From NCBI RefSeq assembly GCF_011745625.1, contig NW_027191518.1:1-44697 (forward strand): a stretch of 44,697 bases of DNA. Reading direction: 5' to 3'. Below, piece by piece: positions 20,801-44,510 of the stretch (position 1 is its first letter; the number at the start of each line of letters is the position of its first letter). A program made the translations under genes and the position numbers. The notes under the pieces are model-generated. The model had not been told where the DNA came from. It did no database searches and saw only the letters and a list, made by a program, of their open reading frames with translations. This stretch comes from Cladosporium halotolerans. Lineage: Eukaryota.

Positions 20801-20809
20801 AGACTTGCC

Positions 20810-21746
20810 TTGTGTTGCATCCGTCTATTGTGGCTCTTGCGGCGCTGTAACACCATGTCTGCGACCATATACCTGTCCCCTAGTGCTCAGCCCGTCTCTT
20901 CTGCCGTGTCCCTCTACTCTCTGGGCGTATGGCAGTGCTTTAAAGTGATCCCACGTGTTGTTCTTGTCTCCCACTAGGATCTTTGACGTGGCAATGTGTT
21001 TGCGAGCGTCTTTCGTCGTTCACGGCAGCTTCGATGTCTCCATCGGCGTTCAGCGGTATGAGAACGATGCTCCACTCCTGCTGGGCTTCGAATTACTAGC
21101 ATGAGAGCTCTAGCGCGAATCTCCTCGGGCTTTGTCATGTGGTGAAGGGTGACTAATCCTTCACCAATGGTTCTGGGGGCGACAGTGGGCGAGGCTGTCT
21201 GTGTATCTGTAGTATTGTGTGGCACCGATGAGTAGCGTGCCGATGCCCGGTGTTCGATTCGCGTAGAGATGATCCCGTTCTGTTCGAAGGCCTGCCGGCG
21301 TGGGACGCCGCAGACGTTGGCAGGTGCTTTGATGGACCTGCTCCCGGTCCATCCGTGGCTGTGTATTGTGACTGTTGCTGAAAAGTGTCTGTGCTCAGTC
21401 GCCGCACCCGTACTGCTGGACTCTGACCGAGGCACTGTACTGCTGCTAAAGCCGAAAGACGTGTTGTTTCGTGGCTTGCTCTTGATGTTCTGCATGTGTT
21501 GTCCACTGCGTCGACGAGAGGTCCTCTGCAGATCCCGTGTCCACGGGGAGAGTCGCGCGGTGACCTGCACAGGGCATCAGGGTCTTATGTGGACGTGATT
21601 GCGGCCGCGTTACTTGGTGTTTCCTTGCTCTTTCGCACCCGCTGCGTGCTCCTTATCCAAGTTGTTGAGGTCTCCTGGCTCTGTCAACTGTTGCCAGTGA
21701 CAGGTTCGTAGCCGGCACCACGTACAGGTGGACCTCATCGCCGGCC
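20810..21746 (-). mobile_element. 5' fragment of a ribozyme-headed LINE-like element (family X, copy 1)
   Basis: Starts with an HDV-like fold. Patchy similarity to 29770-30340 over about 550 bp (GAGCAAGCCACGAA, CAACGTCTGCG, AACAGAACGG, CAGACAGCCTCG). No RT remains, so LINE identity is inferred. Confidence 0.6.
21667..21746 (-). ncRNA. HDV-like self-cleaving ribozyme (class I, copy 1)
   Basis: P1 GGCCGGC/GCCGGCU; P2 GAGGUC-C/G-A-GACCUC; P3 ACC/GGU; L3 UGUACGU; P1.1 GU/AC; P4 CUGUCA-CUG GCAA CAG-U-UGACAG; J4/2 GCCAG. Confidence 0.85.
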
Positions 21747-21785
21747 GTCACCAGTCGTACTACAGCCCTTAGATAGGTCATTACC

Positions 21786-24700
21786 GGGAAAACTTTCTTT
21801 TCGGCTTTGTCACAGACAAGGTCATTATTTATACCAATCCAGAGCACAGACTAAGCGCATTGCGTATATAATAACGTGATTTCCAACGCCTCGGCTGGCG
21901 GGAATGTTATCCCCCAGTAGAGGCGGCGGAGGGACCCCTTTGAACGACATTTCAGGGTCCGAAGCGTGCCGGGGAGCCTCCGGGCGGGTCAGAAGCCTCG
22001 CAGATTTCGGATTCTGCGAAACGGACTTCAGAGAACTGACCATGAACATTGAAATCTCTGAACTCGACTGTGTGATGGTGGAGGATGAAGAGGGCGTTGG
22101 GGGAAACCGGAGCGCGAAGTCTGGGGAAGCTGACGACCTCGCCGACGCTGCTGCGGGGTTGCCTACACCGGAGACGAGGCAGGGGACGGTGGCGGAAGAG
22201 GTACCAGGTAGTGACGAGGGCTGAGGGTAAGCCGAAGCAAGCAGCTAAGGCTGCTGTGACGGCGCTCAAGCCTGGTGTCGTCCAACCGAGCCAACAGGCC
22301 GAGGCGTCGAAGAAACGTAGGGCAGAGGACCCTTTGACGAGGTCCAGCGATGGAAGCTCCCTGGCGGACCAGATTGAAGGTGTCAAATCCCTGGTCCTCC
22401 GTTTACTCGAACAAGGGAAGAACGAGATCTGGAGGAGGAAGAGAGACTGGAGATCTGCGATCTGAGGAAGGAAGTCAAAGACCTCAAAAAAGAAGTGAGG
22501 GAGCTCAAGAAGCTGCTTCAGGCGAACAACGTCCAAGCACAAGGTCCCACTTATGCGGCGGTCGCTAGGGCGAACATGCCGATGTTAACGGTCAGGACCA
22601 CGTTTCCGCGCGATAAAACGGGTGACGTGCAACCGCAACAGAGGCTGCGTGTTGAGGATGATAAATGCTCCATCACGGTCAACACCTCCAGGGTCAAAGA
22701 CGAGAAGCCGGACTTTGTGGCAGTAAAGGCCAAGCTCTAACAGGCAATCGATGGTAGCGGCGCTGTGGGAAACGCAAAGATCACTTGCCTTCGCCAGCTT
22801 CCAGGCGAAAGAATAAACGTGGTCTTCGCTTCTGCGGCAGATGCTAAACGGGCTCGGAACCACATTGGGTGGCTTGGGACTGCGATGGCCAACGCGAGAG
22901 TGCTCAGCGAGCCATGGTACCATATCAAGTGTGACATGGTTGCTAAGAGGGCCATGTTGGACGACCAAGCACCAGATGCGAGTTTGCCATAAACAATGCC
23001 AAGGAGGGGTTGGATTTCACGGCAATGAAGGCTAGCTGGCTCAGTAAGCTAGACCCGCGTAAAGCGAATGGATCTATGGTACTCTGGCTGAAGAGCAAGG
23101 CGGCCGCCGACTGGCTCTTGCAGACGGGCCAGGCTTCGTTTGGGGGAGGTGCTTATGGTGCCTGCTGTTCGAAATATCTCCAGGACAACTCGTCTAAGGT
23201 CTGCTACAATTGTAATGCTTATGGACACACGCAGACCAACTGCGGACGCGCCACTCGTTGTGGCAACTGTTCCGGTAGCCACCAAACACGAGACTGCACT
23301 GGTACTGCTTCGCTGAAGTGTCCTGCGTGTACGGGAGCTCACACAATCAAAGATTGGTGCTGTAAACACCATCCGGCCCACAGGAAATATCTCGCTCAGC
23401 TATCGAAATAACCAGAGGCCTCACAGTCGATGAAGTCTGCTGCAGGAGTGCCATGCGACAAAGATGCGGAAATGGACCGTCCCCAGCGGTGCAAATGATC
23501 AACGAACTCAAAATACTGCAGTACAACATCGGCAGGCGCAAGCAAGTTCAGTGGAGCACGTTCAATGATCCAAATTTGCAGAGTTTCGCGGTTTTGGCTA
23601 TCCTAGAGCCACACCTCTGGGAAGACCCCGGGATAGGAGAAGCGAGGACGCACCAGCATGATCGGTAGTACGCAATGACGCCATCGAAACACAGAACAGG
23701 AGTTCGTACATGGCATTCGTTTCGAGCTATGCTGTATTTCAGCATCAGCACGCATGCCAGACAGATTCCGGTTGACAGCTTCGACATTGTCGCAGCGACT
23801 ATAAGGCTCAGAGAAAAGACTATCCTAATCATCGCGATCTATGACCCAGGAGTGGAGCGAGACGCGACTGATCGGGATGCGGCTCTTCAGGTGAAGCGGA
23901 TCAAGTCCGGGATCTGGTAGACACAACCAAAGGCGAAATAGGTGACAGCCTACACATCATCCTGTTGAAGGGTCTCAACCGTCATGATATCCTATGGGGC
24001 GGCATTGCAGTGGCAGCTCACTGTAAACGTGACGAAGGCATTCGGATAGTGAATTTTGCACAGGAATACGGTCTACAGTCGCTCCTCACACCGGGTACTA
24101 TAACGTGGGAACACCCAGCCAGCATCGCTCGTTCCACAGTCGATGTGATCATGGCATCAGAAGGCATGGTAGAGTCTCAGACGTGCTGTAAGGTGTATGA
24201 CACAGACCATGGCTCAGACCACAGGCCGATAGAGATGAGATTCGACCTTCCGGTGGATCAACCCAAGGACCGCAGACGGAGACTACAGTTCCAGAAGGCT
24301 GATGGAAGGTCATTGGGCGCGCAGTTGAGGCACGCTTACCACTCTCAGATATCCCGAGTGAAGTCACGCAAGATGAACTCGAGGAGTATGCGACGCATTC
24401 CATGCGAGTGGTCACGGAAGATATGCATGCAAGAGTTCTCAGGTCCAGACCTTCGCCCTACGTGAAAAGATGGTGGACACCAGAATTGACACAAACTACG
24501 GAGCAATATGACTGCTGCCAGAAACGCCATCACAGCTTTACGGCGCAGGGGTGAATCACCTGATGAAGCTCAACAACAGTTTTGGCTGGCGAAACGTCGC
24601 TTCTGTCGCGAGATGGAGGCTCAGAAAAAGAACCACTGGCATGCCTTCCTTGACGACCAGAACAATATCTGGAAGGCAAACTCGATCTCGAAGTTGATGT

Positions 24701-26177
24701 CCCACAGTACCAGGATCCCGGTACTCCACACTGAGAACCGCGTGGCCGAATCCGACGAGTCAAAGGCCGATGTGTTGATGGAAAGCTTCTTCCCCACTCC
24801 GCCACCACCAGAAGAAGCCTCAACAGTTCCTCAAACCGACGGAGGGGGCGAAAGTCTTTTGGATATGCTGCCGGCAGTGACGTACCAAGAGGTCGAAAGA
24901 GCGGTGATGCATCCGAATCCCAACAAAGCTCCTGGCCCGGATGAGATCCCGTTTGCCGCGTGGAGGCAATTACTACCCTTCGTCAAGGAATCGATCAGGT
25001 GGCTGTATCAAGCATCGTTGTCGCTAGGCCACGTCCCTCGGCTTTGGCGCGAGGCGAGCATAGTGGTGTTGCGTAAACCTGGAAAGAAGGACTATGGCGT
25101 TACCAGGGCATACAGACCCATCTCCTTACTATCTGCAATAAGTAAGGGGCTTGAGTCTAGCTCCAGGCTACGCTACACGCTGCAGCCGTGGAAGACGCTT
25201 CCTCAAATAGCGATTCCGCGTTCGGCTGAGGAAGCCATCAAGCGTTACAAACTTGCCATTCAGACTCAGGAAAGGCTGGTGTTCTACCCCGATGCTTCGG
25301 TACGGAATAACGTCGCTAGTGTAGCAGTGACAGTTCTGGGTTTTGAGAAGCTAGGTCGCATACCAAAACTGATATACCAGGCCACCGTAGGGTGGGAGCA
25401 CACGTGCTCCGCCACTGCCGCCGAAGTCAAGGGAATTGAGCTTGCCGTGCTTCACGCCAGAAGTGCGGGAAGACACTTCTCCACAGTAACGGACAGCCAA
25501 GAGTCGATCACGCTGGTCAACAAGAGGGGCCGCTCAGCCAAGGCAAGAGACACGGCCGGTGCGGTACTGAGAGCAATTGGTTCGTGTCTAGAGGAAGCAT
25601 TGGACTTTGACATACTCTGGGTACCCGCCCACAAAGGTATAGCTGGCAATGAAGCAGCAGATCGTGCAGCTAGACAACTGACGGAAGTGCATGGACGGCC
25701 GACAAGAGTCCCGGCATTTCGAGTGAGTGAACGACCAAAGGTCATGAGAACTGTGGAGGAGACAGTCAGGCGAGAGAGCACGGTCTCACCGTCGCACTGG
25801 GGAAGGCACACCTACAGTCTCAACGCTGCTCTGCCTGGTAAACACGTCTTGAAGTTGTATGGCATGCTTTCACGGGAAGAGGCCAGCATCCTGCGCAGGC
25901 CCGAACCGGGCATGCGCGTCTGAACTCGTACCTTCCAAGGATAAGTCGTGGAGGACGGCAAGAGCAGCTGCTGTGATGGCGGTGAGACGGTCAGCCACGC
26001 CCTATTGTGGTGTAAGCGATGGAGCCACCTACGTGAAAGGCTCATAGAAAAAGCTGGTCAGAGATGGGGAGACATTTCGTACCTCCTAGGAGGACGAAGC
26101 TCGAAAAGAGTTCCAATTAACGGCCGACTGATTGATGTTCCGGGAAAATGGAAACTAGATTGCAAGATGGTGTGGGA
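21786..26177 (+). mobile_element. LINE copy D with RNase H (Tad1/I-like), degenerate, RT core deleted
   Basis: ORF1 21904-23411 with CYNCNAYGHTQTNC, CGNCSGSH, CPACTGAH. APE ILQYNI..LNRH..VDV..GSDH. RT start KAPGPD..YRPISLL joined to RNase H FYPDAS..E..DS..WVPAHKGIAGNEAAD. C-terminal CCDG.ETVSHALLWC. Confidence 0.9.
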
Positions 26178-26289
26178 AACGCCGCTTCACATGCCGTCTG
26201 GTACCTAGCACACTCCATTATCTTCGCGTTTCGGCAGAATAATGGAGTAGGGTAACAATCTCCGACGTACAATGTACCTATCACCACAA

Positions 26290-29200
26290 TCACTTGTTCC
26301 CAACCGTGCTGATGATCTGCTGTATCTTTTCCACGATCTTCTCAATTCTATACGGCTTGCTGATCACGTCATCCTGATGATCATTAGCTACAGTCGATCT
26401 CTTGTGGCAGTGAAATCGCTCTTACCATTCCTGCCGACTTCCTGTCAAAAACACAAGATAGAAAGGTCAGTGTCTGCTGGTCTGAAATCTCAAAAACAAA
26501 GCGAGCACTTACATCTCTGCTTGTTGCTCGCTTCTGACGTTAGCAGTGACCCCGAGGATAGGAATATGCTCTATCTGTCCCTGCCTTTCCAGCTCGCGTA
26601 TAGTTTTCGTAGCGGTATTCCCATCCATTATTGGCATTTCCATATCCATAAGGCAGATGTCAAAAGCATGTTTGTCACTGGAGAGCTTCGAAGCATTCAT
26701 CACAGTCGTGACAGCCTCTTTGCCATTGTTCGCCACCGTTACGTCGTAGCCTTTGTTCTCTAGCTTCCGACACACCAGTTTTTGGTTGATCACATTATCC
26801 TCAACGAGGAGAACATGAGCCCGCACCCTTGGCTTGGCTGGTAGAGTCTTCAGCGTCGTCCCCTGATAGGAGGAGCCTTCACCGTTTTCTGCTGAGGACA
26901 ATGACGCCATATCGACTCTCAGGTCCTGGCTACTCTTCCGTTCGTTCTGGGATGCGATAGAACCTTTCGTATCCTGGTTCATGCTCTCTTCTCGAACCTT
27001 TGAAGCGATCTGAGCGGTGCGCTTATACCTGTCATCTTCCTGATGATTGGTATTACGAATCATGTCCTCCGTTTTCGCTACTGGTGGATTGTCCAAGCTC
27101 CCCGGGAAGATGCTGTTGTCTATGTTTTTCGGCGCGAAATTGCCAAGCTCATTGATCTGGCCTCTTAAAGGGGCGTTGTCCAGTTCCTGCTCCTCTACCC
27201 GGCTTTCATAGCTCTGTGGCTGCCCGGTACGCTTCACTTTGAAGAAGAAGCCAAATGTACTGCCACAGCCAGCTTTAGAGCTGACACCGACCTCGCCGCC
27301 ATGGACATGACATAGCTTCCGACTGATGTTAAGGCCCAAGCCCGAGCCCCCATAAATCTCGACAGTCTTCGGCGTAGCCTGCCTACGTATGTGCTTAGGA
27401 CAAAATATACGTATCAGCACCAGGCTTCATATCCGACTTACTGCATCGTTTAGGTCAGTCCCAAGCAACACACAGGAATTAAGGAGCACCTCGCAAAACC
27501 TACCCTAAATCGCTCGAACAGCCGCTGCTGGCCTTCATCACTGATTCCGATGCCCGTGTCTTTCACTGCAACCATAATGTAAGCCGCCGCACCAGTGCCC
27601 CAGTCTCGCGTGTTGGTAGCATCCACGCGATAAGCATGATCTTCAGGACTAAAAAATACGACGTTGGGCGGGTAGCTTGTTGGACGTTGCACACTGGCAC
27701 CCACCGAAACTACCACCTTCTTCTGACCTTGGGCTCTCGCGGTGAACTTAATCGCGTTCGAGACCAGGTTTATTAATACCTGCGAAATACGGACCATATC
27801 TGCCTTGAGGGGAAGGGTAAAAATTAGCAAATTCTCGAGGCAAGGTATGATAGCAGGCATCAATAGCCATTCTCCCGTTTTGGAACTGCTGCGCATTCAG
27901 TTGGCAATAAGCAGGCCACTGTTGTGGCCCACTCATGTCTGCCAATCTATACCTCATATGTCTCGGCTCGGAAAAGACAACGAAGGAACACAGGAAATAT
28001 AAAAAGTGAAAAAGGATGTGGAGACGAGCAGGCTTACCAGGACCCAAGATACATCCAAATCGAGGTAGGATTGATCTATTCTGTAGCCAAACTCGACTTC
28101 TTGCCGACGAAACTCAGGTTGAAAGAGTTTGAGAGAGTTTGCGATTTGACGATCCGGCAAGCAGGCCTTCGGGCTCAAAGACAGCATTGAAGCGTCCAGT
28201 TTTGAGAATGACAGCACGTCATCAACAATATTTCGCTGGTGCTTTGCAATTAAATAGCACATCAGCCTCGATATCAGGTCCACGCGGTACCTGCCGACCT
28301 TACCTGGATGCAGACGTTGATAGTCTCGACAGACTCTTTGATGCTGGCAATGTCGACATTGCTCAGATCACTGATGGCATCCTCGATATCTTCGGAGCAG
28401 TGCAGCAGAGCCGATAATGGATTGCGGATTTCGTGTGATATCATATCAATGAACCTCTCCTGCTGCTCTTTGCGTTCACGAGCGTCTTTGGCGGCCTTTC
28501 GCTCCGCAAGCTCCGCACTCTTCTCGGAAGTAATGTCGACAACGCTACAGATGAAGCCTCCATATTCGCGCAAGCTCACATGCTGAAGATTGTCATCGCC
28601 AAGTGGTGTTAGGAAAAGCAATCGCCATGGATGTTGATCACCGAGCGCCCTGAACTCTGTCCGAAGCTGTTTTTGCGAGAAAAAGGCATCATGGTATATA
28701 TCCATGACTCGATTGTAGTCATCAGGATGGATACTCTGTGGCCACGATTTGAACTCCTGGTTCTCGCCGCGATGGGTAGTCAACTGGTAAAATTGCTGGT
28801 TGACAAAGACTGCTTGCGCTTTATGATCGAGAATTGCCAGGCCCGTCGGTAGCATTTCAGCAAAACGGTGAAAGAATGGATGCTCGTCGAATGAGACACC
28901 GTTGAGTGCCCGTCCCAGCTGGCTCATGTCACATTCGGTCTCTGGGTTCTTCTCTGGCATTTTCATTTCCCAAAGATCTGGTCGTGAAGGATGCTTTTCG
29001 TTTCCGCCCCGGCCATAGAGGTCGGGCTCTGGTATCATCTGTACGAGTGAGCCATCCGCACCGTGCTCTCTCGGATCTGTGTCGTCGAACAGGGGGCTGA
29101 TGAGTGTTGTATAGCGGCCTACTTCATAGCCGGAGTGATCCCGAAGAAAAGCGCGACTGTTGACCCTTTTGGGAACGCCGCCATGTAAAGAGGCAGACAA

Positions 29201-29575
29201 TGCGTTAAAGCCGTCCGCGGACAGCTTGCCACGTTGCTCTTGACCTTGGTCGTGAATTCCACTGGCCTTTCTCCATTCGCGATTCTGCAGAAGAATCATC
29301 TCCTCACCCCAAAAGACGCAGGCAGGATAAGCAAAAGACGCAACGGCTTTGGTATAGGCCTTTAGCGCCTCCGGCCACGTCCCCGGCTTCTCAAAGGGGG
29401 AATGCTCCCACGCCCGCTCATTCCCGGGTAGCAAACCCTTCAATTCACTTTCAGCACGCTCATGCAGTGATTGCTCAGCTTTAGGGTTCATGATTGGTGG
29501 TCGTTGATGACTTCTTCTTGCTTGATTGGTTTGCACTGACCTTGCGCCCGTCCGTCGAAATACTCGAGGACTCAC
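26290..29575 (-). CDS. Hybrid sensor histidine kinase (PAS-HisKA-HATPase_c-REC), multi-exon; start uncertain (in-frame ATG at 29491 or an upstream exon)
   Basis: PAS IHPDD; H-box MISHEIRNPLS; N-box NLVSNAIKFT; G1 DTGIGI; YGGSGLGLNIS; receiver VLLVEDN..DICLMDMEMPIMDG..TAN..DDVISKPY. Five GT-AG introns. Confidence 0.9.
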
Positions 29576-29769
29576 ATGACGGGGTTAGCTGACATTTTGA
29601 CAAAGTGGTGTTGGGAAAGCAATCCGCCGGATTGATGCTATGAATCGTCATCTTCCCGGCCCGGGCCGTATCACATGACCCGGGCATTCTCTATCCGACA
29701 ACAAAGTGACCCTGGCGAACATATTCCAACCACTGTCGAGAAATGAAGAAGCTTCTGAGGACAAGGCTC

Positions 29770-29850
29770 GGCCGGCGACGAGGCCCACGTGTACGTGGTG
29801 CTGACTACGAACCTGTCACTGCTCAGCAGCTGGGGGAGCCAAGAGGCCTC
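29770..29850 (+). ncRNA. HDV-like ribozyme (class I, copy 2; partly decayed)
   Basis: P1 GGCCGGC/GCUGACU; P2 GAGGCC-C/G-A-GGCCUC; P3 ACG/GGU; L3 UGUACGU; P1.1 GU/AC; J4/2 GCCAA. Confidence 0.8.
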
Positions 29851-30340
29851 AAGAGAAAAGCAGGAAGACAAGGCGAGCACAAAAGAGCAAGGAAAGCGCA
29901 AACATACCACCACCAGAACCATCCGCTTGGAATCTGCAACAGACTCTGTAGGCCATTACGTCTTCCTCCGCGTCGAACGAATTGTAGAGCCACTGTTGCA
30001 GTCACGGCGGATACAGATTGCATAATTCCACGAGCAAGCCACGAACACGATGCGCAGATCCAAGTCGACGATAACGGCCGCAGCCTGGTCTCGATATAGC
30101 AACCCGGACACGATTACCGAGCCCAGGCAACCCAAAATACCACAGTCAACGTCCAGAATAAAGTCCTCGATGGATCAACCGCCCGCCCATCACACGTACC
30201 CGACAACGTCTGCGACGTCCCGCCTCAACAAGACCTCAAACAGAACGGCATCATCTCCTGCACGAATTGGACACCAGACACACAACACTAGAGTCACCAG
30301 ACAGCCTCGTCCACTGTCGGCTCCCTCCAAGCCCCACAGG
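29770..30340 (+). mobile_element. 5' fragment of family X, copy 2
   Basis: Homologous to 21170-21746 (minus), including an aligned ATG-GAY start and QRLRRP codons with a synonymous change. Confidence 0.6.
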
Positions 30341-30692
30341 GCGTTCGTGCTGGATGTCTTGTCCGGTGTGACTCTTTTCATCTCATGAGCCTATGTATTG
30401 GTCTTCCTGCGAGAGCCGGTGGGCTCGTCGCGTTCTTGTGCATTTCCTGCGCCTTCTTCCGACTCTTGCTCATTTGGGATGTCGAGTCGACCTTGTCGAT
30501 GCTGGTGGCGGGGGTTCGTGTTGCCTGCAGGCGCGGTGCGCGCGCAGGCCTTGTCGTGTCGTGCAGAGTTTCCTGGCGGCTGGACGGCGAAGTGGGCGGC
30601 CATGTCGACCATGTCGGGCGTTCTCGATGGGTTGGGGTCATCGAGTGATGACTGGGTTGCGAGACTGCCACGTGGACTCATCGCTCTTCTGT

Positions 30693-30765
30693 AGCGCACT
30701 TCATTTCACTGCAAAGCAGCTACTCACACCAGACACCACGTGAAGGTGTGCGCTCTGCCTCCGGC
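30693..30765 (-). ncRNA. HDV-like ribozyme (class II, E-loop P4) with the catalytic C replaced by U
   Basis: P1 GCCGGA/UCUGGU; P2 AGCGCAC/GUGCGCU; P3 ACC/GGU; L3 UUCACGU; P4 AGUA-G-CUGC UUU GCAG-U-GAA; J4/2 A-U-GAA. Confidence 0.8.
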
Positions 30766-31270: not shown

Positions 31271-31286
31271 GCATTGAGCGGATTGT

Positions 31287-32720
31287 CAGAGATGTCAATA
31301 TGTGAATCGTTATTCAGTAATTCGATTCAGTAATTCAGTTCAGTCACTACTGTATCATTCCTTCTTGGATCATGCCATAGATTCAGTTTAGATTCAGTAG
31401 ATTCAGTAAACTCGACCCACCCCAGGCGTATATTGGAGCACAACACAGCATGGCTCAGAACGTAGAGCTAGATGCGACTCCGCATTGCGGGCCTTGCGGG
31501 CAAGCCTTCAAATTCGGTAGTGCTCACACACCATCGCCGTGGTCCAAGGCACTACCCCACGGTTTCGCTGGCATGAGCCCTGATACAGACCGCGAAACCT
31601 CTAGCGAGGCTTCCCATACGGAATTTGATCTTCTTGATGTGCACTCCAACCACAACGGGATACCTCTTTCTAGCGAGTCCGGCTCTCAGCCTGATGATGA
31701 CCTGATACATCCAGCTAAGAGACCGAGGAAAGGGCGGGCTCCGCGAGCGGTCGCCCTGTGGTCGCACGCACGCAGCCCTCTGCCGCATGAGCCGTCGCGT
31801 GCACCTTCGGGTCATCGATGGTTTTACTGCAGTCGTTGCGATTGGGAAAGCATCACATCCAACGCGCGGAGGCATGTGGCGAGTTATGGCATACACATCG
31901 GACAAGACGATTCTCTTCAGAAGCAGGCTGCAGCCAGATCCATCAAGGCGTCCTTCAGTGCCCAAGAGCTTGCGGCGCAGGCGAGGAGCGACGAGAAGAC
32001 GAGGAACACTCTCCGCAACGCTTGCAACAAGGGCAGTTTCCGCAATGCGGTCGCACGCTTTGTCACCAGCCAGAGCCTAGCTCACAATGTTGTCGAGTCA
32101 AGGGAGTTTCATGCTATGTGCTTAACCCTCAATTGTGAGGCTGGACACGCTCTGGTTCGGTCCCACTCGTCTATACCTCGTCGCATCGCATCTAATTTCA
32201 AATACCAACGCTCCTTGGTAAAGGACGCTTTGCATGAAGCTCAAAGCGCGATTCAGCTCTGCACAGACAGCTGGACGTCCGGCCTCACCAATCAGCGTGA
32301 GTTTCAGGCAATCAACGCACAGTGGGGAGACGCGAATGGCCAGATACAACGCGCGCTGTTAGCCTTGCCAGAGCTTACGCAAGGTCACGCTGGAGAGGAC
32401 GTAGCACCTCATATCATTGACGTGTTACAAAGGGTCAACATCAAGCACAAACTTGGTTTCATCACTGCCGACAATGCTACAGCCAATGACACACTTTGCC
32501 GGGCAATAGAGCAGCATCTGGCCTCGGATGGAATTACTTGGGATGCGGCAACCCAGAGGTTGCGATGCCTCGGTCACACCCTCAACATAGCTACGCAAGC
32601 TCTCATGTTTGCGAAATATAGCGAAGCTGTTGATGTAGCCGCACAACGTACGGCCAACACTCGGTCTGTAGAAGAGTCCATTGCTTCACTATCGCAGACC
32701 CAGAAGGAAGGCTGGCGACG
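31287..32720 (+). mobile_element. hAT (Restless-like) transposon 1, left end plus 5' half of the transposase
   Basis: CAGAGATG start followed by ATTCAG subterminal repeats. BED finger FYCSRC..RRH; LCTDSWTS; TADNATAND; LRCLGHTLN. Truncated after EGWRR. Confidence 0.85.
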
Positions 32721-32759
32721 CGCGCCCATGGTGGCCGCAAGTAAGTCTCAACAAGCAAA

Positions 32760-33263
32760 AAGGGACTTCTTTTCGCTTTTGTCACAGACAGGGTCATCTT
32801 TCATATCAATCGGAAGCACAGCTCAAACACAGTGCGGCCACACCAACGTGATCTCCAACGCCTCGCTGGCGGGAATGTCATCCCCCAGTAAAGGCGGCGG
32901 AGGTACGCCCTCGAGCGACTTTTCACGGTCTGAAGCGCCCGGGGAGAGCTTCCAGCCAATCGGGAGCCTCGCTAATCGAAAGCTGTTCACGCCGGGTTTC
33001 AGACGTGAACCCCCAGAGAGCCAGGAATACCAGCACGTCGCCAGAACGTGCCCGGCAAGCCCGAAAAAGCGGAAAGCAGAGTCAAACATCGCTGTGAGCA
33101 TTGAAGAGGATGCACTATGGCAGGCGATCGAGAAAGCCGTGGCGAGGGCGTTGCAGGCCTTGGTAGGGCCCGACCTCGCCTCTGGCTCATTAGGGAATGT
33201 AAGATCTCTGCGAAGCGGGATCAAAGATATCAAAAACAGTATTGACAAGACGCAAATGTAAGT
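32760..33263 (+). mobile_element. 5' end and ORF1 start of a LINE related to copy D, in frame with the hAT1 ORF
   Basis: 32765-32945 is similar to 21792-21975 (TTTGTCACAGACA.GGTCAT; MSSPSKGGGGTP versus MLSPSRGGGGTP). Confidence 0.8.
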
Positions 33264-33294
33264 CATGGAGATTGTGAATTTCACAATCTCCATG
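33264..33294. repeat. Perfect palindrome with 15-bp arms and a 1-nt spacer
   Basis: CATGGAGATTGTGAA-T-TTCACAATCTCCATG. Confidence 0.95.
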
Positions 33295-36049
33295 GTATGG
33301 ACACTATTGGACAGGGTGTCCAATAAGAAGATATCGCTAATGGACAAGCACAGGGTGGGCCAAAGGCTTATTGGACACTATACAACAAAACCATATGCTC
33401 GTTGAAAATCAGCTCTCAAAGGCTACTACTTCCGGGGTATTATTTGGGGCAATCGCTCCAAATTATGGAGATGGCTGCGTTTCGGGTGAGAAGAGTGCCT
33501 GAGGCCCCCTCCACAGCTTCGTGACTTCTGATTGGCTCGATCTCCACGTGCGACTCGAAGTCTGATCGTCGCGCATGGCGTTCAAGTCGCGTCTGGCTTC
33601 GCGTGTCTGGGGGGCATACTCAATCACAACGTGCCAGCGCCAAGGTTACCGTGATGCCCGATTACGAAGTGCTGAGCGACGGAGCAAGTGGTGTGAGCGA
33701 TGACGACGGGAGTGAAATGGGCCAAACAATGGCTACGGCTTGCAAACCTCCTCTGTTGATCACGAGCGCCTCGTACGCGCCCGTCGAAGTCGAGTGCGAC
33801 GACAACAACACAGTGTCAGGTAAGAGGCAAGAAGCGGCGTCGTCGAACGAGGGCGGAGACGATCTGGCCTCACTCACGGAAACACCTACCGGGCGTGGAG
33901 CCCGAGAGGTGTGAAGTTGGGCGCAGATTGTGGTACTGCAAAATCTGTCCTAGGTACAGTGTGTCAAGCACAAGTGGTGCCAGGGCTCATATGGCTTCCG
34001 TCCATTCTGTTGCTGTTGCCGACGAAACACTGGGTGGTGTCAAGAAAGCCAAGTACCACGACGTTCGTCAGCTTTTGTGTCAACAAACGCAACATGAAGC
34101 TGTGGCAAGCGAGAAGCTCACTCTCCGAGCGGCGGCTGACCCGGCTTTGGTGAAAGCAGCATGGATTCGGCTACTCATACGACACGACTTGCCTCATAAC
34201 TCAGTTTGTTGGCCAGAGTTGCACACCTTTGTGCATACCCTTAACTATATGACTTCCGACACCTTACTCACCTCAAGCGCCACGGTGCGGAGCTCTATCA
34301 CGGCGACGTTCAAGCAAAAGCAGGAGCACCTCAAGAACATGTTACAAAGTGCGAAGTCGCGCATTCACATCACGACTGACACCTGGCACTCGCCGTCGTC
34401 GACGGAGCTTCAAGCAATAAACGCCCATTTCGTCGATGAGCATGGTCAGCTACGGAAGGCACTGCTGAATCTAGCCGAACTCGAGGATGGCCATAGTGGA
34501 AGAGCCGTCGCAAAGCATGTTCTCCAGGCTCTCGCCTTTTATGGGGTCAAAGGAAAAACTAGGTTTCTTGACTGCTGGCAATCACGGAGCCAACGACACA
34601 CTCTGTCGAGCTGTTGCTGAGGAACTAGACAGCTGGAACCCCGTGGACAACCGTCTCCGTTGTCTTGGTCGTATCATCAATCTCGCCGTGCAGGCATTCT
34701 TGTTTGCGAGGAACGAGGAGGCAGTCGCAGAAGCGGAGCGTCAGCCACAGCGGTGCAAAACCGACATCGATCTCGAAATAGCAGCCGGCTCAATCAAAGA
34801 AGACGGTCGAGGTTGGTCGACTATTCTGCCTCTACAGAAACTACATACTCTCACTTCGAGGTTGGACAGGAGCGACAAGCTCAAACTGCAGTTCGGGAAA
34901 TTGGCCAAGGGCCGCACCATTCACGCGGACAACGAAACTCGATGGAACAGTTGGTACTTTACTATCGATAGCGCATTGAAGCTTCAGTTCGAGATAGGTC
35001 AGTTCGTGCACGACAACTACAAGGAGCTCGGCGACCTCGATGTTACCCATTCAGAGTGGCAGATTCTTCGGGATACACTGTCATTTCTCCAGCCGTTCAA
35101 AGAAGCGACCAAGCGCTGTGAAGGCGACAGCACAACGCTGGATGCTCTGCACGAGACGATGGATTTCCTGATAAATCATTTCGACGAGCAGATGGATCTT
35201 CACCGCTCAAACAAGCCCTTTGTCGAGTGTATCATGGTTGGCCGGTACACCTTGGACAAGTACTACAGAGACGGGAGCATACGCGGCCGCGATACTACTA
35301 CATCCCAACAAAAGAAAAGCATATCTGCAAGCTGTATGGAAGCGTGGTTGGGTCAAGCCGGGCCTGCGCCGTGCTGAAGACCTATGGTCGAGGCAATACG
35401 GACATGCGAAGGTTGATCAGGCCGCATCTCCGCCTTGCGGTGTTGAGAGGGACGGTGACGCTAGCGAGTTGACCTCATACGAAAAGTGGCAACAACGGCG
35501 TTGGCGAAAATCGCTGAGACTAGCAACCATAGCTCCGAGTTCACGCGCTTCGTCGAAGCGCCAGCAGAAACGCTCCGCTTCCACGACGGCTTTACTGTCT
35601 TACACTGGTGGCAAGAACCAAGCCAGCAACGCACCTATCCACGACTCAGCCGCATGGCTCTTGACATCCTGTCTGCACCCGCAATGAGTGCTGAAGCTGA
35701 GCGAGTTTTCAGTCTTGCAAGGAGACAGATACCGTTCGATCGAGAACGTCTGAAAGCCGACATCATTAGCCAGACGGAATGTTTCAAGAGCTGGCACATT
35801 CAGCATCTAATAGACGAGACAATGATAATTGAGTAGCCTTCAGACCAGGTCGAAGCGTCATTTTGTAGCTGTATCCGAATCGTATGCCAGACTCTGTGGC
35901 CCACTATCTCTTTGGTGCACACAACTATCTCTTAGCGGTGCCAAGACTTTTTGCTGCATACCGCTTAAGAGACTTTTCCTTATTGGACATACATGTTCTT
36001 AATAGACAAGCACAGGGTAGACCCTCGTTATTGGACAAGGACACCATTG
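33291..36049 (+). mobile_element. hAT transposon 2, near full length, transposase frameshifted (about 33654-35836)
   Basis: BED finger WYCKIC..AHM..H; TTDTWHS; RLRCLGRIINL; NETRWNS; dimerisation domain WW..YPRLSRMALDILSAPAMSAEAERVFS. TTATTGGACA and GACAAGCACAGGGT repeats at both ends. Exact termini uncertain. Confidence 0.88.
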
Positions 36050-38148: not shown

Positions 38149-38354
38149 TACACCATGGGGCTTGTCCGCGGGTCCCAAGGTCGCATGTGAGCGAGGGTTA
38201 CACAAATTGCTTGCTGCGTTCGAAAACATTTGGGATTCGCGAAGCAAGAGAGCGCCGTGGTGGAAAGATCACGCCGTTCGAGCAATATATACGCTGACAC
38301 TCGTCGCTTTTACAGCCGTTGCTTCACGCCATCGTCTTCCTAGTCCAGCTCATC

Positions 38355-39233: not shown

Positions 39234-39934
39234 GAAGACTTGTCGCACGACTGCCTTGCTTTCTACGAACCTTGACTTTGACTTTGACTACACCAGCACC
39301 TTCGTCTTGCATAACTTATACTTGGTGCTCCTACTTGAAAATGCAAGCTAGGAACGCAGGCACCACCTTTGTTGGTTTTGGTTTTGTTGTTTTATTGCAC
39401 AGCGTTGGAGGAGTCTTTTGTTGCATGTGACACTGCCTGAGCTGGACGAAGCGACAAGCAGTGAGCTGCGATTTGCAGCGGATTGTACTTAAAAGAACCG
39501 ACTAGATGTTATACCCTGTGATTTCTTATGGATACCTTTGGTCCTACAGTATCCTGCTTTGTCTCTAACTAATTTCCTCAACATCGCGCCGACATCTCCC
39601 TGCTAGAAGGTAGTAGTTCAAAAGGGATCTGGCATCTTTTTGCTTAATCGCACTCCTCAGCTCCCATTCCACCCCCGCCTCTGTTCTCCCCGGCATTACC
39701 AAGGGCAAGCCTGATCATTTCTTGTTGGAAATATGCCTCAGCTGTACACACTATACTGTATGTTGCAGCCTACGGCTGCCTACGAAGAATTCCTGCCGCC
39801 TAATAAGAATTACGGCAGCCTGGTGATCATCCTATATATAGTTGGCAGTCACTTCCTATAGAAAGAATAACAATGAACATCCGATCTTTAACATTTCTCG
39901 TCTCTCTTGCGCACCATTATGGTAATAGTATCGT

Positions 39935-40220
39935 GTCTGTGCACCCAATGCACGGATTCACCCGATGCGCCCCGGGTATAAACCACCCTAAACTTCAACA
40001 CCCCATAACCCCGCCAACATGAGCTCGATGGAAGATGCGCTTGCAGAGTTAGAATCGCTAGAACCTGGGAAATCATTCCGATATTCTGAAACAGCTAAGA
40101 GCCTGGTGTTGACCGCTCTACGCGAAGGCACCGAGCCGTCACAACGTCGCGCGCAGCCGATGCCTCAACGCGTCAAAAGCTCAACCCACGACAAGAGCTA
40201 GAGCTTGTACGAGACCTAGT
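39935..40220 (+). mobile_element. 5' fragment of a pogo-like transposon (HTH region)
   Basis: MEDALAELESLEPGKSFRYSETAK..GVDRST..RRH..RQKLNPRQELELVR across frameshifts. Confidence 0.7.
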
Positions 40221-40619
40221 ACACGCGTCCACGCCGCCGCAGGTGGAAACAGCTCGCAAGAGCTGGCTAAGTGTAGGGGCGATGAGGGTGGCCGCCGTCG
40301 CCGCGACCAGTTGCGGAAGTCTAGGGACAGGAGCGTCATACTCCGCCTCGCAACTGCTCCATCACCTACTCCCTTCGTCAGGAGGTGGAACCACCCATCA
40401 AGAATGAATTCAGAGGATACTGGGATACGAAAACAACCCGACATGCTCCTAACTTTACCCTGCAGTCGCGCGCAGAGCCCGCACTGTAGCGTTCTACTCG
40501 CTGCAGGAATGTGGAAGCCCTAGGAACGTGACAGGGCAGCTCCGGGCCTGAACTACTCTGGAAACACGTCGGATCGGTGAGAAAGACGTGTCGAGGGGAA
40601 CTGCAGATCAATTTCTAGG

Positions 40620-40730
40620 GACCTTGTTAAGGCTAACTGCGCGTAGGGATACAGACCTTGTTAAGCCTCCCAACGCGCCACTCAGCCTCAAAGGACTGTT
40701 AAGCCCTTGCTTCGCGCCTCTGTTAAGGCC
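40620..40730. repeat. Four dispersed copies of TGTTAAG(G/C)C, probably TE subterminal repeats
   Basis: accttgttaaggct, gaccttgttaagcc, gactgttaagccc, ctctgttaaggcc. Confidence 0.55.
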
Positions 40731-41396
40731 TCCGCTATACGACTACCATGCCCTGGGGCGATTACCACGTACGGACGAGAAAGGGGAGGGGTCACAGTCC
40801 ACTATGGGGGAGAATGTCGCGGAGGTGCACACAGGCCCAGCTGTATACCGGGCGCAGGGAGTGTCACAGGCCAGCAATAGAAAGAGGTGGATACAGGCTT
40901 GGTTAGTAGAGGAAGGGTTCGTAGGCTGTCCCGCGCGGAGTCTACAGGATCACCTCTGCAAGACACGGTCGGCCTACCGTGGGGAGACCCTCGTAGGCAA
41001 CGCGAAACGGATGTCGTAAGGCATCCGCGGGGCGTAGTGCGTAATAGCCACTGCTGGCTCCGAGGACCTCACCCCTTCAATGGGCTCTGACCCTCGGTGT
41101 ACCTGGAAGCAGGCGGGATCAAATCTCGGCCGGAGAGACTACTACGTGGCTCGAGAGAATGGGTGCGCGTGTCGGTACATAAACAGACAGGACTGTTCGC
41201 TAGGACGGAATGCTGATGATATGTGCTTAAGGAGCAAACAACAAGTTTTATCTTGACTATGAGAGGTTTTGCCGGGCCTCAACTAGGAGAAGCTGGCCTT
41301 GAATATAGCCGAAAACCAGGGTGGGGCCCAGTAGACAACGGGGCACGTCGCACCTGCTTAGATATACAAGAATCTAGTAACTGTTGCTGCAACAGC

Positions 41397-43916
41397 ATGG
41401 CGGCAACGACGACGGCAGCCTTAGAAGCAGCCATCGAACGACGAGCTGAAGTAGTGCTCTTGCAAGGACCTTATGCTGGAAAGAAGCACACGATCAGCCA
41501 CCCGGGCTACCAGTTACGCTGGCCGGAGTGCGAGAAGCAAGACATACGGGTGGCTCTAACCATTCGCGTTGACATGCTCGATATGTATGTCTTTGAATAA
41601 AGGACTGACCTGATAGACCACCCCTGCGTGCAGTGTATGGACGTCTGGGAAACTCAGGGAAGGCGGAAGGTGCGCAAGACGAGGGTCACCAACATCTCCA
41701 ACAGAGCAAGAGTGGAGGGGGGCGGGCACACAATCAACGGCATCGACTTTAGGGAGTTGATCCAAGGAAGGACGATTCTGGCGGGCGACTTCAACGCTAG
41801 GAGTCCTGTGCGTAACGCACGGATGGAAGGCCGCTACGACGCTGCGTCACCGAAGGGCTCATCGAAGACCATGCGCTGATTGCGGACAATGACTTTCAAC
41901 CGACAAGATGTGCGAAAGAGCAGATCGGTCATCGACCTGACGCTGAGCACCCCGAGTGTCGGAACGCTGCGAACGTGGAAGATCGATGAAGACCTCGCCA
42001 CACCATCGGATCACACGGTGATGGCCTTCTCGCGGGATCGGCTGTACTCTCATTCAGGCGCACGTGAGGCGAGATAGATGTTAAGCTGGGATATCGATAA
42101 GCTCCCCGCAGATGAAGAGCGACTGAAGCAAGCGCAAGACCATTGGAAGGAGCTCTCTGGTAGGAGACAATCCATCTCGACTGAGCCATGTAAAGTGGAC
42201 CTCAAAGAAGAGGCAAAGTGGATACAGTACAACCTCACGTCGGTTCTCGACAGACACGCGACTCTGAAACCAATACATCCCCGATCGAAGCGGTGGTGGA
42301 CCGACGAGATCAAGCAGGAAAGGAAGAGACAGTGTGCATCTAAGCGGGCCCTCCGGTCGAAGGAACTGCCCTTCGAAGAATACCGTCAAATCAGAAATGG
42401 ATATTATTGCTGCATTCGGCGCGCAAAGAGAGAGGCGGGGATACGCTTCCTCGAAGGAGTGCTACCGACCAAAGAAGAAGCGCAAACTACAGCTGTCAGC
42501 GATCGATGCTGGAATGCCCTCCGATACACCAAGCCCCGGACAACTTCGTACACTCCCGCAATCAAGATTATCGGGGATGATGGGCAGCCAGAAGGGCTTG
42601 CGGCGTCAGCGGAGGAGAAGAAGACGTCTTCGTGAATCAAGCGTTTCCGCGCCAAGAGGAAACTGACGACGACATCTCCATTCCGGACACGAGAGCTCAA
42701 GTCGGAGCAAGAGAAGTGCAAGAAGCGCTCTTCGCACAGTCGGTCAAGAAGGCACCAGGCATTGACAAGCTCGGCTGTCGTGCGCTGAGACTGCTGTGGC
42801 TGTGGGACGACACTAGAGTGGTGGTGCTTGTCAGAGGGTGCATCACATCAGGATACCACCCACTCTGCTGGAAGGCTGCCAAGGGCATACTGCTGCGCAA
42901 GCACTACAAGCCGACATACACCGTCGCCAAAGCCTACCGCATCATCAGCCTGTTGAGTTGCTTAGGTAAGGTCGTCGAGAAAGTGGCAGCCACATGGATC
43001 GCATGCTATTGCGAAACGAGCAGGGTGACCCACCAGGGTCGGTTTGGCTGTCGTCACAGCAGGAGCACGTCTGAGGCGGTCGCAAAACTAGTGTCTCCCG
43101 TGGAAGGCGCTTGGGAGCGGAAGCCGATGGTTCTTACGCTGCTGCTGAATGTCAAGGGGGCCTTCGATCGCGTGAACAAGCAACGGCTGCTCAAGCGTAT
43201 GATTGAGGTTGGCATCGCGGGCAACATTGTCCGCTGGGTCGGCTCGTTCCTGTCTGACAGGCGGGCGAAGCTAGTCATCGACTGCAGGGCCGGGGGAACG
43301 CACGACATACAGGCGGGTCTGCCGCAAGGTTCGCCCCCGTCACCGGTGCTGCTCATCCTGTCAGTAAGCGCCATGTTTCCGTACCTCGAAGAAAGGCATC
43401 CTGATAATGAATCGTTATCTTTCGTGGACGACATGGGCTTGGTGTTAAGGTGCGGCGACTTGAACGAAGGTGCGTGAGAGCTCGAAAACGTCGCTCGACA
43501 TGCAGTCGAATGGGGAGACAACAATCAAGTCGAATTTGAGATCAGCAAGACGGAAGTCTTGGTTTTCAGCAAGCAGCGCAAAGTGCTACAAGCAAGCAGG
43601 CAGGCGACGGTCCAGATTGGAGAACAGGAGTTTTCTTTCAAACATGGAGCAACAAAGTGGCTAGGCTCCTGGCTAGACTCGAAACTGTCCTTCAAGACAC
43701 ACTTCGAGAAAAGACTAGCTAGCGCCAAAGGAGCTCTACAGAGAGCCAAGGGTCTCGGCGGCAGTCGCGGTGGCTTGCCTATGCGTCTGATGCGACGGGT
43801 CGTTGTAGCGGCCGTGAACTCGGTCGCGCTTTATGAAGCTGAGGTGTGGTGGAGAGGACAGCAAGATCGCGCCAAGCGTCTGCAGCAACTGCTGCTGAAC
43901 AGTCAAGCGAGGATCG
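41397..43916 (+). mobile_element. LINE copy E, ORF2 (APE plus RT), degenerate and 3'-truncated; decayed ORF1-like sequence probably lies upstream from about 40220
   Basis: VVLLQGP, AGDFNA, SVIDLTL, SDH; RT KKAPGID, AYRIISLL, NVKGAFD, GLPQGSP, SFVDD, KWLG.WLDSKL. Confidence 0.9.
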
Positions 43917-44152
43917 TCAAGCTGTTCAGCTTATGACATGCTTAGCCTTTTTCTAAGACGACTTCTCTTGCTTCCATCTATGTTCTCGCGTTGGATCCTT
44001 TACCGTACAATCCTGCTCGCTGCCCCGAATTCGACAAGCCGCCACAGCTTTTGGGCTCTCGGCCCTCCTACGTTTCTGTCATCACTGCGCCTCATCCCTC
44101 ACCTCATTCATGGTCATACTCCAGTGGCATCTCATTGTCACCCCAATCAAGT
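43917..44152 (-). mobile_element. Inverted 3' UTR of LINE family C
   Basis: Reverse complement aligns with 17930-18150, ending in CATAAGCT(G/C)AACAGCTT. Confidence 0.8.
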
Positions 44153-44431
44153 CAGGCTGTTCATCGGACAGACAGACAGGGTTTCAGAGAATGTCTGGTC
44201 TGCTTACCTAAGAACCGGCGTCTTGTCTGTCTGTCTGAGAAATGGCGATGATTTGTCTGTCTGTCTGCGTAGTATGCCAAGACATCTTTCCGAATATGTC
44301 CCGTAAGTGCAATCAACCCTCCACGCAGAGAGGCGAAGAACTTGTGTGGTCGTCAGCAAATCCTGATTCCCGCCAGGGTCGTTTCCCCCATTGGGTGGTC
44401 AGTCTGTCGTGCATCTGCAAGCCTGAACAGC
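44153..44431. mobile_element. MITE-like element related to 6767-7082
   Basis: Starts CAGGCTGTTCATCGGACAGAC, has GTCT/AGAC repeats, and a partial right end TGAACAGC. Confidence 0.55.
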
Positions 44432-44437
44432 GGGCGT

Positions 44438-44509
44438 GCCGGACGAGAGCGCACACCTTCACGTGATGTCTGGTGTGAGTAGCTGCTATGCAGTGAAACC
44501 AAGTGCGCT
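44438..44509 (+). ncRNA. HDV-like ribozyme (class II, E-loop P4) with the catalytic C retained
   Basis: P1 GCCGGAC/GUCUGGU; P2 AGCGCAC/GUGCGCU; P3 ACC/GAU (one mismatch); L3 UUCACGU; P4 AGUA-G-CUGC UAU GCAG-U-GAA; J4/2 A-C-CAA. Confidence 0.85.
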
Positions 44510-44510
44510 A

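Follow-up and report, generated by a model that had tools for sequence, protein, structure and literature searches.

Two related classes of HDV-like ribozyme folds that probably head short non-coding retroposons in the dothideomycete Cladosporium halotolerans

The stretch of Cladosporium halotolerans DNA analysed here (contig NW_027191518.1, positions 1 to 44,697, hereafter the window) raises the question of whether the hepatitis delta virus (HDV)-like folds that it carries are ribozymes and, if so, to what kind of element they belong. A first-pass annotation had proposed that four such folds, of two classes, lie between positions 20810 and 44509, with no coordinates given for the individual folds. 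All four were located in this analysis and their coordinates worked out (Table 1); each can be drawn as a nested double pseudoknot, all lie within 20810-44509, and they fall into two related classes, class I (copies A and B) and class II (copies C and D). As judged by sequence comparison, the folds at the four sites are likely to be self-cleaving ribozymes of HDV-like type, in two related classes, each copy situated at base 1 of a short non-coding non-LTR retroposon of a dothideomycete.

Table 1. Coordinates of the putative ribozymes, the associated elements and related pieces in the window.
Feature	Position	Strand	Remarks
Putative ribozyme A (class I)	21666..21746	minus	G1 = 21746, P2' end 21666; all helices intact; pair table, relaxed descriptor match, RF00094 match
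Class I element A	20810..21746	minus	~937 bp, ribozyme A at head
Putative ribozyme B (class I)	29770..~29850	plus	G1 = 29770; decayed; pair table
Class I element B	29770..30325	plus	5' part only; homologous to A from 21746 to 21181; self-BLAST, MAFFT
Putative ribozyme C (class II)	30693..30765	minus	G1 = 30765, P2' end 30693; decayed; pair table, RF02682 match from 30765
Class II retroposon Z, 5' part (positions 1 to ~435)	30340..30765	minus	window BLAST with six full metagenome copies
Putative ribozyme D (class II)	44438..44509	plus	G1 = 44438, P2' end 44509; pair table, RF02682 match from 44438
Pogo-like element at TA behind ribozyme D	44509..44697	plus	runs off the window; tblastx
Z, 5'-truncated 3' part	6477..7194	plus	~310 additional bases at 6764-7073
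Z 3' module, AT-rich end	18000..18177	plus	behind one LINE copy
Z 3' module	43917..44071	minus	opposite orientation to ribozyme D

In the HDV architecture P1 encloses P3 and is crossed by P2, whilst P1.1 forms between L3 and the junction behind P1, and P4 is a hairpin. The core formed by P3, L3 and P3' is common to both classes. A motif describing this core, ACCTKYACGTGGT, occurs with no more than one mismatch at exactly the four fold sites in the window, with one unrelated site matching with two mismatches. When the helices were set out in a pair table, the class II consensus and copy A showed pairing at every position of the nested double pseudoknot, the architecture in both comprising a 7-bp P1 with G1.U at its base, a P2 of 6-7 bp, a 3-bp P3, an L3 of 7 nt, a 2-bp P1.1, a P4 hairpin and a J4/2 in which CC is followed by A. 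The G1.U pair that closes P1 is found in A, B, C and D as well as in the class II consensus, and the CC then A of J4/2 in the class II consensus, A, B and D, being absent only from C. The columns of P4 could not be aligned between the two classes. Core damage is evident in three of the four window copies (B, C and D), copy A being intact; the window copies are mostly dead, and only A (21746) retains all helices together with the J4/2 cytosines.

Within copy A, P1 is formed by GGCCGGC and GCCGGCT, with the G1.U pair at the base, whilst P2 comprises 7 bp and is followed by an additional C and then P3 (ACC/GGT); L3 reads TGTACGT, P1.1 has 2 bp, P4 has 9 bp with a GCAA loop, and J4/2 is AGCCAGGA. 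Copy B carries a C-A mismatch and an additional wobble in P1, a G-G mismatch in P3 and a P4 whose base has been lost, together with a 6-bp P2 in which a compensatory C-G stands against T-A in A, and a J4/2 that includes CCAA. Downstream of the fold the two copies were claimed to be similar over about 550 bp, and a similarity of ~570 bp was indeed recovered by self-BLAST and MAFFT (Table 1). Contigs from four sequencing runs, which cannot show RNA ends, were compared with the window. An X9 contig matches element A from 20808, with dissimilar sequence before that point, and other copies in X1 diverge beyond 21743, marking the 3' and 5' boundaries, respectively; element A appears to be complete. 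The element B region is covered by X7 and X8 contigs from 29745/29747 to 30687/30688. An ORF of 200 aa in element A (20974-21576) is without a match in a Pfam scan, and neither an A-rich tail nor a target-site duplication was seen for class I in the two window copies and the contig hints. On its 3' side element A ends at position 20810, where a search by hand for a plus-strand fold found none. A Helitron or LTR identity for elements A and B was rejected by eye, the ends being unfitting.

Of the class II copies in the window, C has a G-G apposition at P1 position 7, its remaining helices being intact, and its J4/2, GAAATGAA, has lost both cytosines of the CCAA of the family. Copy D pairs at 7/7 positions of P1, two of them wobbles, with a C-A mismatch in P3 and a one-base deletion in J1/2, and its J4/2, GAAACCAA, is intact. 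An X9 contig (30549-30920) crosses the predicted cleavage site of C, the kind of run being only guessed. The D element is broken directly 3' of P2', where TA and a pogo-like element follow at once, in line with the earlier assertion that the fourth fold is cut off by a pogo element. A tblastx comparison pairs 44510-44693 with 38149-37965, where the upstream part of a pogo-like copy with HTH_Tnp_Tc5 and DDE_1 domains is situated, and an identical 16-mer is present at 44509 and at 38150, the start of another pogo copy.

The retention of 5' ends without 3' ends had been described as the opposite of normal LINE 5' truncation. Ordinary causes account for the missing 3' ends: D was split by the pogo-like element at TA, whilst B and C run towards each other and adjoin, tail to tail, at ~30325-30340, element C being without its 3' part. 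The window further contains, besides the apparently complete element A, three 3' pieces of the class II element with ordinary 5' truncation. At the first of these, positions 492-876 of the copy Z_L008 match 6477-6763 and 7074-7194. The second, at 18000-18177, lies ~540 bp past 17458, beyond which the two copies of the first LINE family no longer match, and the other copy of the same LINE has a different 3' flank; the piece represents a truncated insertion of Z or, alternatively, the terminal part of the 3' UTR of that LINE. The third is opposite in orientation to D and so is not part of the element that D heads.

The nature of the class II element, termed Z, was examined with a set of 17 distinct copies, comprising 15 metagenome loci and the two window copies. 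Similarity among all 17 begins exactly at G1 of P1, pairwise likeness being 27% in the 20 nt upstream of G1 versus 86% in the first 20 nt of the element, and base +1 is G in 16 of the copies. Z is non-coding, with full copies of ~0.87-1.2 kb, and no conserved ORF was common to the two of the seven full copies in which this was examined. A-rich tails are present in six of the seven full copies. Exact target-site duplications abutting G1, and situated between tail and flank, were identified in two of the seven (12 nt in L013 and 8 nt in L008), with a near-exact duplication in a third (L016) and none in the other four (L015, L017, L019 and L021). The presence of an A-rich tail and target duplications at the far end of the unit fixes its strand and polarity. 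Full copies of a common short length, with tail and duplication, were what the first-pass annotation had suggested looking for, and its proposal that the folds head short, ribozyme-led, non-autonomous elements stands for class II, which fits a ribozyme-headed short non-autonomous retroposon as far as these sequence features go. No autonomous element with either ribozyme head was found in the window or in the loci. In HDV-like ribozymes a catalytic cytosine is expected in J4/2, directly ahead of the 3' strand of P2. At the level of the fold, single cytosines of J4/2 are missing in two copies (the first in L004, the second in L013), and C18, the counterpart of C17 in class I, can pair with G67. 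The class II P4 has 5 bp with AGUA on its 5' side and GAA on its 3' side, flanks that may represent a module of the loop-E type. In L003 and L005 the sequence that follows the class II head differs from ~440 nt onwards.

The assignment of these folds to the HDV family was then assessed against Rfam models. Whole-window scans, conducted at the gathering threshold and at E<=10, returned no ribozyme family, a null result that reflects a limit of the method, since scans of 131-nt sequences later gave sub-threshold HDV matches. In these shorter scans the top match for locus L009 was to RF02682 from the predicted G1 (26.9 bits, E 0.0014), whilst A matched RF00094 (HDV_ribozyme) over the full model length from 21748 to 21667 (22.0 bits, E 0.16). 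Copies D (18.5 bits, E 0.12) and C (11.5 bits, E 5.1) matched RF02682 from their respective G1 positions, and B had no Rfam HDV match at E<=10. For A, C and D, too, the HDV-family model was the top match and in register. Across 16 loci (34.9 kb), RF02682 was the top match, at G1, in 11, with four unrelated matches and no HDV match elsewhere. Nearly every base of the class II P3-L3-P3' core can be aligned with the consensus of RF02682 (HDV-F-prausnitzii), and the P1 of class I matches the consensus P1 of RF00094. However, scores of 11-28 bits never reached the gathering cut-offs, the best being 28 bits for RF02682 (gathering 44) and 22 bits for RF00094 (gathering 50), and P4 and J4/2 align poorly.

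Descriptor searches gave results that depend on the definition employed. A first HDV descriptor performed at shuffle level (1 strict match versus 1.67, and 17 relaxed versus 17.0, in 12 shuffles), with none at the four sites; it was unable to match the folds, its definition restricting the spacer between P1.1 and P4 to 2 nt and J4/2 to no more than 5 nt starting with C. Its one strict match, at 21290-21410, lies on the opposite strand inside element A and was dismissed as chance. A strict descriptor that stipulates all helices and C-N-R-A before P2', and which was widened after the fold had been seen, matches intact family copies at element base 1; its chance rate is 1.23 matches per 89 kb (30 shuffles), or 0.067 where G.U is required at the foot of P1, and none of the four window copies passes it. 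With a relaxed descriptor only A passes in the proposed register, against a background of ~10 matches per window, and D passes when shifted by one base (start 44439, P3 CAC/GTG).

Paired cells amount to 95.5% across 16 class II copies versus 17-50% in slid registers, and between the classes 3 of 7 P1 pairs and 5 of 6 P2 pairs have changed on both sides yet still pair, in a comparison that comprises two lineages only and our own structural alignment. Within class II none of 24 pairs has changed on both sides among 14 distinct rows, shuffles faring equally well, which is attributable to the family being young. Folding energies are ordinary (z = 0.60, -2.07, 0.68, -0.25 and 1.00), these being for nested structures only, since minimum-free-energy folding is uninformative for pseudoknots.

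It is very improbable that the folds are chance products of repeated DNA, such that the 74-nt repeat would be a DNA transposon terminus, or a LINE 3' end, that has been read on the wrong strand. The mutual inversion of C and D, the performance of the first descriptor and the empty whole-window Rfam scans could be taken in favour of this, but 17 distinct copies show a sharp end of the repeat at G1, the tail and target duplications at the far end fix the polarity, no matching inverted end is present, and that descriptor could not have matched the real fold. Identification of the 74-nt repeat as a terminal inverted repeat of hAT or pogo type was rejected, there being no second inverted end and no duplication of the 8-bp or TA type. 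The chances also appear slim that the fold is HDV-like without cleaving, and serves instead as an internal promoter, an IRES-like element or a binding site for reverse transcriptase, with transcription starting at G1. Precedent for other roles exists, in that the 77-nt 5' element of L1Tc is both promoter and ribozyme (PMC3185411), and the class II family is so young that selection on pairing would not yet be visible. Against this, the features relevant to catalysis (G1.U, P1.1, and CC-A in J4/2 just 5' of P2') have been kept, HDV ribozyme models match in register, and in vitro cleavage has been demonstrated for fungal variants that share the unusual features of the fold (PMC5640933).

For class I, the possibility has to be considered that A and B are what remains of the 5' end of an autonomous LINE family after deletion of its body in these copies, as opposed to a dedicated short element. 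The absence of a tail and a duplication, the existence of only two copies in the window, and the modular appearance of heads and 3' parts (class II, L003 and L005) are compatible with such an origin. It nevertheless seems unlikely, given that both ends of the 937-bp unit are marked by other copies (X9 at 20808, X1 at 21743) and that the unit neither resembles the LINE ORFs of the window nor contains a Pfam domain.

Under the favoured interpretation, of ribozymes that head short retroposons, the element would be transcribed, probably within a longer read-through RNA. By analogy with the ribozyme family, the predicted ribozyme would fold into the nested double pseudoknot and cut directly 5' of G1, such that upstream host RNA would be cut away and the ribozyme would remain on the element RNA. 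A LINE reverse transcriptase acting in trans may then prime on the A-rich 3' end and copy to the RNA 5' end. Since copying would extend to the cleaved 5' end, new copies would start exactly at G1 and be flanked by target-site duplications; copies with this start and such flanks are seen for class II.

The kind of system is already known, ribozyme-headed non-LTR elements and fungal HDV variants each having been described, and no paper was found that joins ribozyme-headed non-LTR elements with HDV variants in fungi. In fungi, self-cleavage in vitro has been demonstrated for HDV variants that have an additional nucleotide, usually C, between P2 and P3 and a P4 partly replaced by an E-loop; HDV ribozymes are cleaved at the foot of P1 on its 5' side, where the closing pair is purine-pyrimidine and typically G.U (PMC5640933). 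The folds described here resemble those variants in having a fungal host and the HDV nested double pseudoknot, in the C between P2 and P3, which is clear in class I (C17) and possible in class II, and in escaping earlier HDV search criteria and Rfam thresholds. As to P4, that of class II is flanked by AGUA and GAA and that of class I is plain, with 9 bp and a GCAA loop. The folds differ from the variants in that G.U occupies the cleavage site in the four copies and the class II consensus, whereas the variants have C-G; and in that the host is a dothideomycete, Eurotiomycetes being among the first species listed for the variants. Furthermore, the variants are reported to have 'widely variable gene associations' (PMC5640933, Li and Breaker 2017, BMC Genomics 18:785), the string 'transpos' being absent from the main text of that paper, whereas the present ribozyme folds start at base 1 of a retroposon.

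Among ribozyme-headed elements, L1Tc and NARTc of Trypanosoma cruzi are similar in that an HDV-like ribozyme of ~77 nt comes first in a non-LTR element and in its non-autonomous partner, cleavage setting the RNA 5' end; they differ in the kinetoplastid host, a single-pair P1.1 and a known autonomous partner with the same head (PMC3185411). HDV-like ribozymes also head R2, L1Tc, RTE and baggins elements, and in R2, RTE and baggins the 5' ribozyme releases the element RNA from a co-transcript (PMC6765202). These, with the R2-derived non-autonomous elements, share with the present families conserved downstream sequence, variable upstream sequence and many copies, but are metazoan and mostly autonomous, R2 being site-specific, in contrast to the dispersed, non-coding units of ~1 kb described here (PMC6765202).

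Two facts are brought together by this locus, namely that ribozymes process the 5' ends of non-LTR elements in animals and trypanosomes, and that HDV variants are common and active in fungi, where their biological context was left open by the describing paper (PMC5640933). In this dothideomycete, and in related contigs from metagenomes, the ribozyme fold is base 1 of a tailed retroposon with flanking target duplications, and a likely job for fungal HDV-like ribozymes, and one that is testable, is the trimming of element RNA to an exact 5' end. The elements constitute a repeat family, of ~1 kb, non-coding and ribozyme-headed, which probably escapes annotation because it has no ORF and scores below the Rfam gathering cut-offs; ribozymes of this sort are missed by whole-window Rfam scans and classic descriptors. 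A broader and more doubtful proposition is that fungal HDV-variant ribozymes in general are the 5' heads of modular parasitic retroposons, a head of ~75 nt having been recombined with different bodies and 3' tails. This is suggested by the relatedness of the class I and class II heads, by the joining of the class II head to unrelated sequence after ~440 nt, and by a 3' module that was possibly borrowed from a LINE. If it were true, a single head could, through such recombination, make use of several LINE families, and ribozyme-led, SINE-like elements would be a widespread and unannotated part of fungal genomes.

The proposal of the first-pass annotation that the window holds four HDV-like folds of two classes was borne out, with the core motif occurring at exactly four fold sites at 0–1 mismatch (and at one unrelated site at 2 mismatches), and with Rfam HDV models providing the best matches for copies A, C and D. 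The observation of four folds is real and its core interpretation sound, ribozyme activity being predicted. Rfam searches of the whole window, at the gathering threshold and at E ≤ 10, returned no ribozyme family, and an initial HDV descriptor matched once under strict and 17 times under relaxed settings, versus 1.67 and 17.0 in 12 shuffles. When regions of ~131 nt were scanned, HDV models were the best match, starting at the predicted G1 (the first base of helix P1), for the class II metagenome locus L009 (RF02682, 26.9 bits, E 0.0014), copy A (RF00094, 22.0 bits, E 0.16), copy D (RF02682, 18.5 bits, E 0.12) and copy C (RF02682, 11.5 bits, E 5.1), with no HDV match in the region of copy B; every HDV score is below the gathering scores of 44–50. 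Across 34.9 kb from 16 metagenome loci, RF02682 matched at G1 in 11 of the 16, with 22–28 bits, and HDV matches occurred nowhere else, alongside four unrelated Rfam matches.

Coordinates of predicted ribozyme copies, repeats and neighbouring features in the window
Feature	Coordinates	Strand	Details
Copy A, class I	21746–21666	−	G1 at 21746; fold intact
Copy B, class I	29770 to ~29850	+	G1 at 29770; P1 C-A mismatch, P3 G-G mismatch, foot of P4 lost
Copy C, class II	30765–30693	−	G-G mismatch at P1 top; J4/2 GAAATGAA, both cytosines gone
Copy D, class II	44438–44509	+	P3 C-A mismatch; one-base deletion in J1/2
74-nt repeat	30692–30765; 44510–44438	+; −	self-BLAST
~570-bp repeat	21181–21760; 30300–29760	+; −	self-BLAST
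5'-truncated 3' pieces of Z	6477–7194; 18000–18177; 44071–43917	+; +; −	three in window
Pogo-like element	7224–9072		perfect 27-nt inverted ends 7224–7250 and 9046–9072; ORF with HTH_psq, HTH_Tnp_Tc5, DDE_1
Histidine kinase gene	26509–29584	−	best named relatives, ~65% identity: Hortaea, Teratosphaeria, other dothideomycetes
Two ORFs, hAT-like by eye	31381–33261; 33760–35687		mutually related by tblastx; no match in Pfam scan of both

The class II fold, over its first 73 nt, comprises P1 GCCGGAC, J1/2 AGAG, P2 AGCGCAC and P3 ACC/GGT with L3 TTCACGT, followed by P1' GTCCGGT (G1 pairing with U), GT forming P1.1 with AC of L3, and GAGTA, and then by P4 GCTGC/TAT/GCAGT, J4/2 GAAACCAA and P2' GTGCGCT. 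A wider descriptor (7-bp P1, P2 of at least 5 bp, 3-bp P3, 2-bp P1.1, P4 of at least 4 bp, C-N-R-A before P2') matched intact copies from the metagenome, at base 1 of the element, and elsewhere only once in the window (34768) and once in the loci; its background in 30 window shuffles was 1.23 per 89 kb, or 0.067 with G.U required, figures that are somewhat flattering since the descriptor was widened after the fold was seen. Nested-only folding energies were ordinary (z = 0.60, −2.07, 0.68, −0.25, 1.00). The class II family is young; within it, none of 24 pairs has changed on both sides, and 95.5% of cells are paired. Between the classes, in our own structural alignment of just two lineages, both sides differ with pairing kept in 3 of 7 P1 and 5 of 6 P2 pairs. 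Within class I, a P2 pair that is T-A in copy A reads C-G in copy B.

The class II folds head a non-coding retroposon, Z. Scanning metagenomes with 20 nt of the 74-nt repeat retrieved 22 loci, of which 16 are distinct. With these oriented as 30692 (+), the repeat has conserved sequence on its upstream side and similarity ends sharply just past it; T-rich runs, or A-rich tails on the other strand, precede the far end of the unit. This makes Z a retroposon that carries a tail and runs on the opposite strand, the 74-nt repeat being its 5' end. In the 17 distinct copies with a 5' end, 15 from the loci and two from the window, pairwise likeness is 27% in the 20 nt upstream versus 86% in the first 20 nt, and base +1 is G in 16. 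A-rich tails are present in six of seven distinct full copies (L021 being the exception), and two have exact target duplications that immediately follow the tail and immediately precede G1 (12 nt in L013, 8 nt in L008); L016 has a near-exact duplication in repetitive flank, and none was found in L015, L017, L019 or L021. The suggestion of a short, non-autonomous, ribozyme-led element fits class II, with full units of 0.87–1.2 kb. Two of the seven full copies, when examined, had no common ORF. An internal ~140-nt unit (30491–30630) is repeated one to three times across class II copies, and several contig joints fall around it, within 30445–30659. From ~440–500 nt after the head, L003 and L005 are unlike other copies, which suggests recombination between heads and 3' parts. 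The 3' module of Z that follows one LINE copy could represent a truncated insertion of Z or else belong to the 3' UTR of the LINE. An earlier reading of the 74-nt and ~570-bp repeats as transposon ends was wrong.

When the ~570-bp repeat is taken on its other strand, its start contains the class I core, ACC-TGTACGT-GGT. In copy A, P1 is GGCCGGC/GCCGGCT (G1.U), P2 is 7 bp long with an additional C after it, P3 is present, P1.1 has 2 bp, P4 has 9 bp and a GCAA loop, and J4/2 is AGCCAGGA. The class I unit headed by copy A looks complete, its 3' end being the 20810 at which the annotated system started, and the 550-bp "downstream similarity" annotated for the class I copies is that of A with B; no tail or target duplication is visible in the window's class I elements. 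In sequencing run X9, a 945-nt contig of ~88% identity spans the element body (20808–21529) at depth 90, and histidine kinase contigs have depth 5–10; should that run be RNA, which is a guess, relatives of class I would be strongly transcribed there.

The claim that 5' ends are kept without 3' ends applies to B, C and D, but not to A, and 5'-truncated Z pieces also occur in the window. B and C are convergent, meeting at ~30325–30340, both lacking a 3' part; their junction is present at ~98% identity in contigs of two other organisms. As annotated, the fourth copy, D, is cut off by a pogo-like element, inserted at the TA after P2'; the last base of P2' (44509) is where the annotated system ended. 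Another pogo copy, at 38150, starts with the 16-mer found at this junction, and 44510–44693 is homologous to its upstream part. Inverted (AGAC)n and (TGTC)n runs at 44166–44270, upstream of D, could form a long hairpin.

This stretch of fungal genome is rich in transposons, with three LINE copies (CCHC, endonuclease, RT and RNase H domains) and three pogo-like elements recognised in Pfam scans; a truncated Z copy directly abuts the pogo-like element at 7224–9072 with its 3' end. In the LINE copy at 22947–25923, the RT core has apparently been deleted: the long ORF joins the beginning of the RT region directly to RNase H. A 31-nt near-perfect palindrome (33264–33294) lies between the hAT-like ORFs, and a repeat family, ~80% identical and multi-copy in contigs of run X1, occurs at 21785–22123, adjoining element A, and at 32757–33094, inside the first hAT-like ORF region. 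Contigs from three other runs replace 26375–26511 with 14 letters, and those of two runs skip 27382–27503, a stretch resembling an intron in the histidine kinase gene.

HDV-like ribozymes are described at the head of R2, L1Tc/NARTc, RTE and baggins elements (PMC6765202; PMC3185411), and the system in the window is probably a further instance of this ribozyme-headed non-LTR kind. Li and Breaker 2017 (PMC5640933) described 230 HDV variants from 26 fungal species, with cleavage demonstrated for two, and a 2026 preprint confirms cleavage for four A. nidulans variants. In the 2017 variants, P2 and P3 are separated by an additional C, P4 has an E-loop and the cleavage-site pair is C-G; class I shares the extra C and class II has something like the E-loop, whereas the C-G pair is not seen here. 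The main text of PMC5640933 states "widely variable gene associations" and does not contain "transpos". A full-text search of openly accessible literature yielded no paper linking fungal HDV ribozymes with retroposons, and the link may already have been published elsewhere. The 5' end of a retroposon provides useful biological context for the fungal HDV variants.
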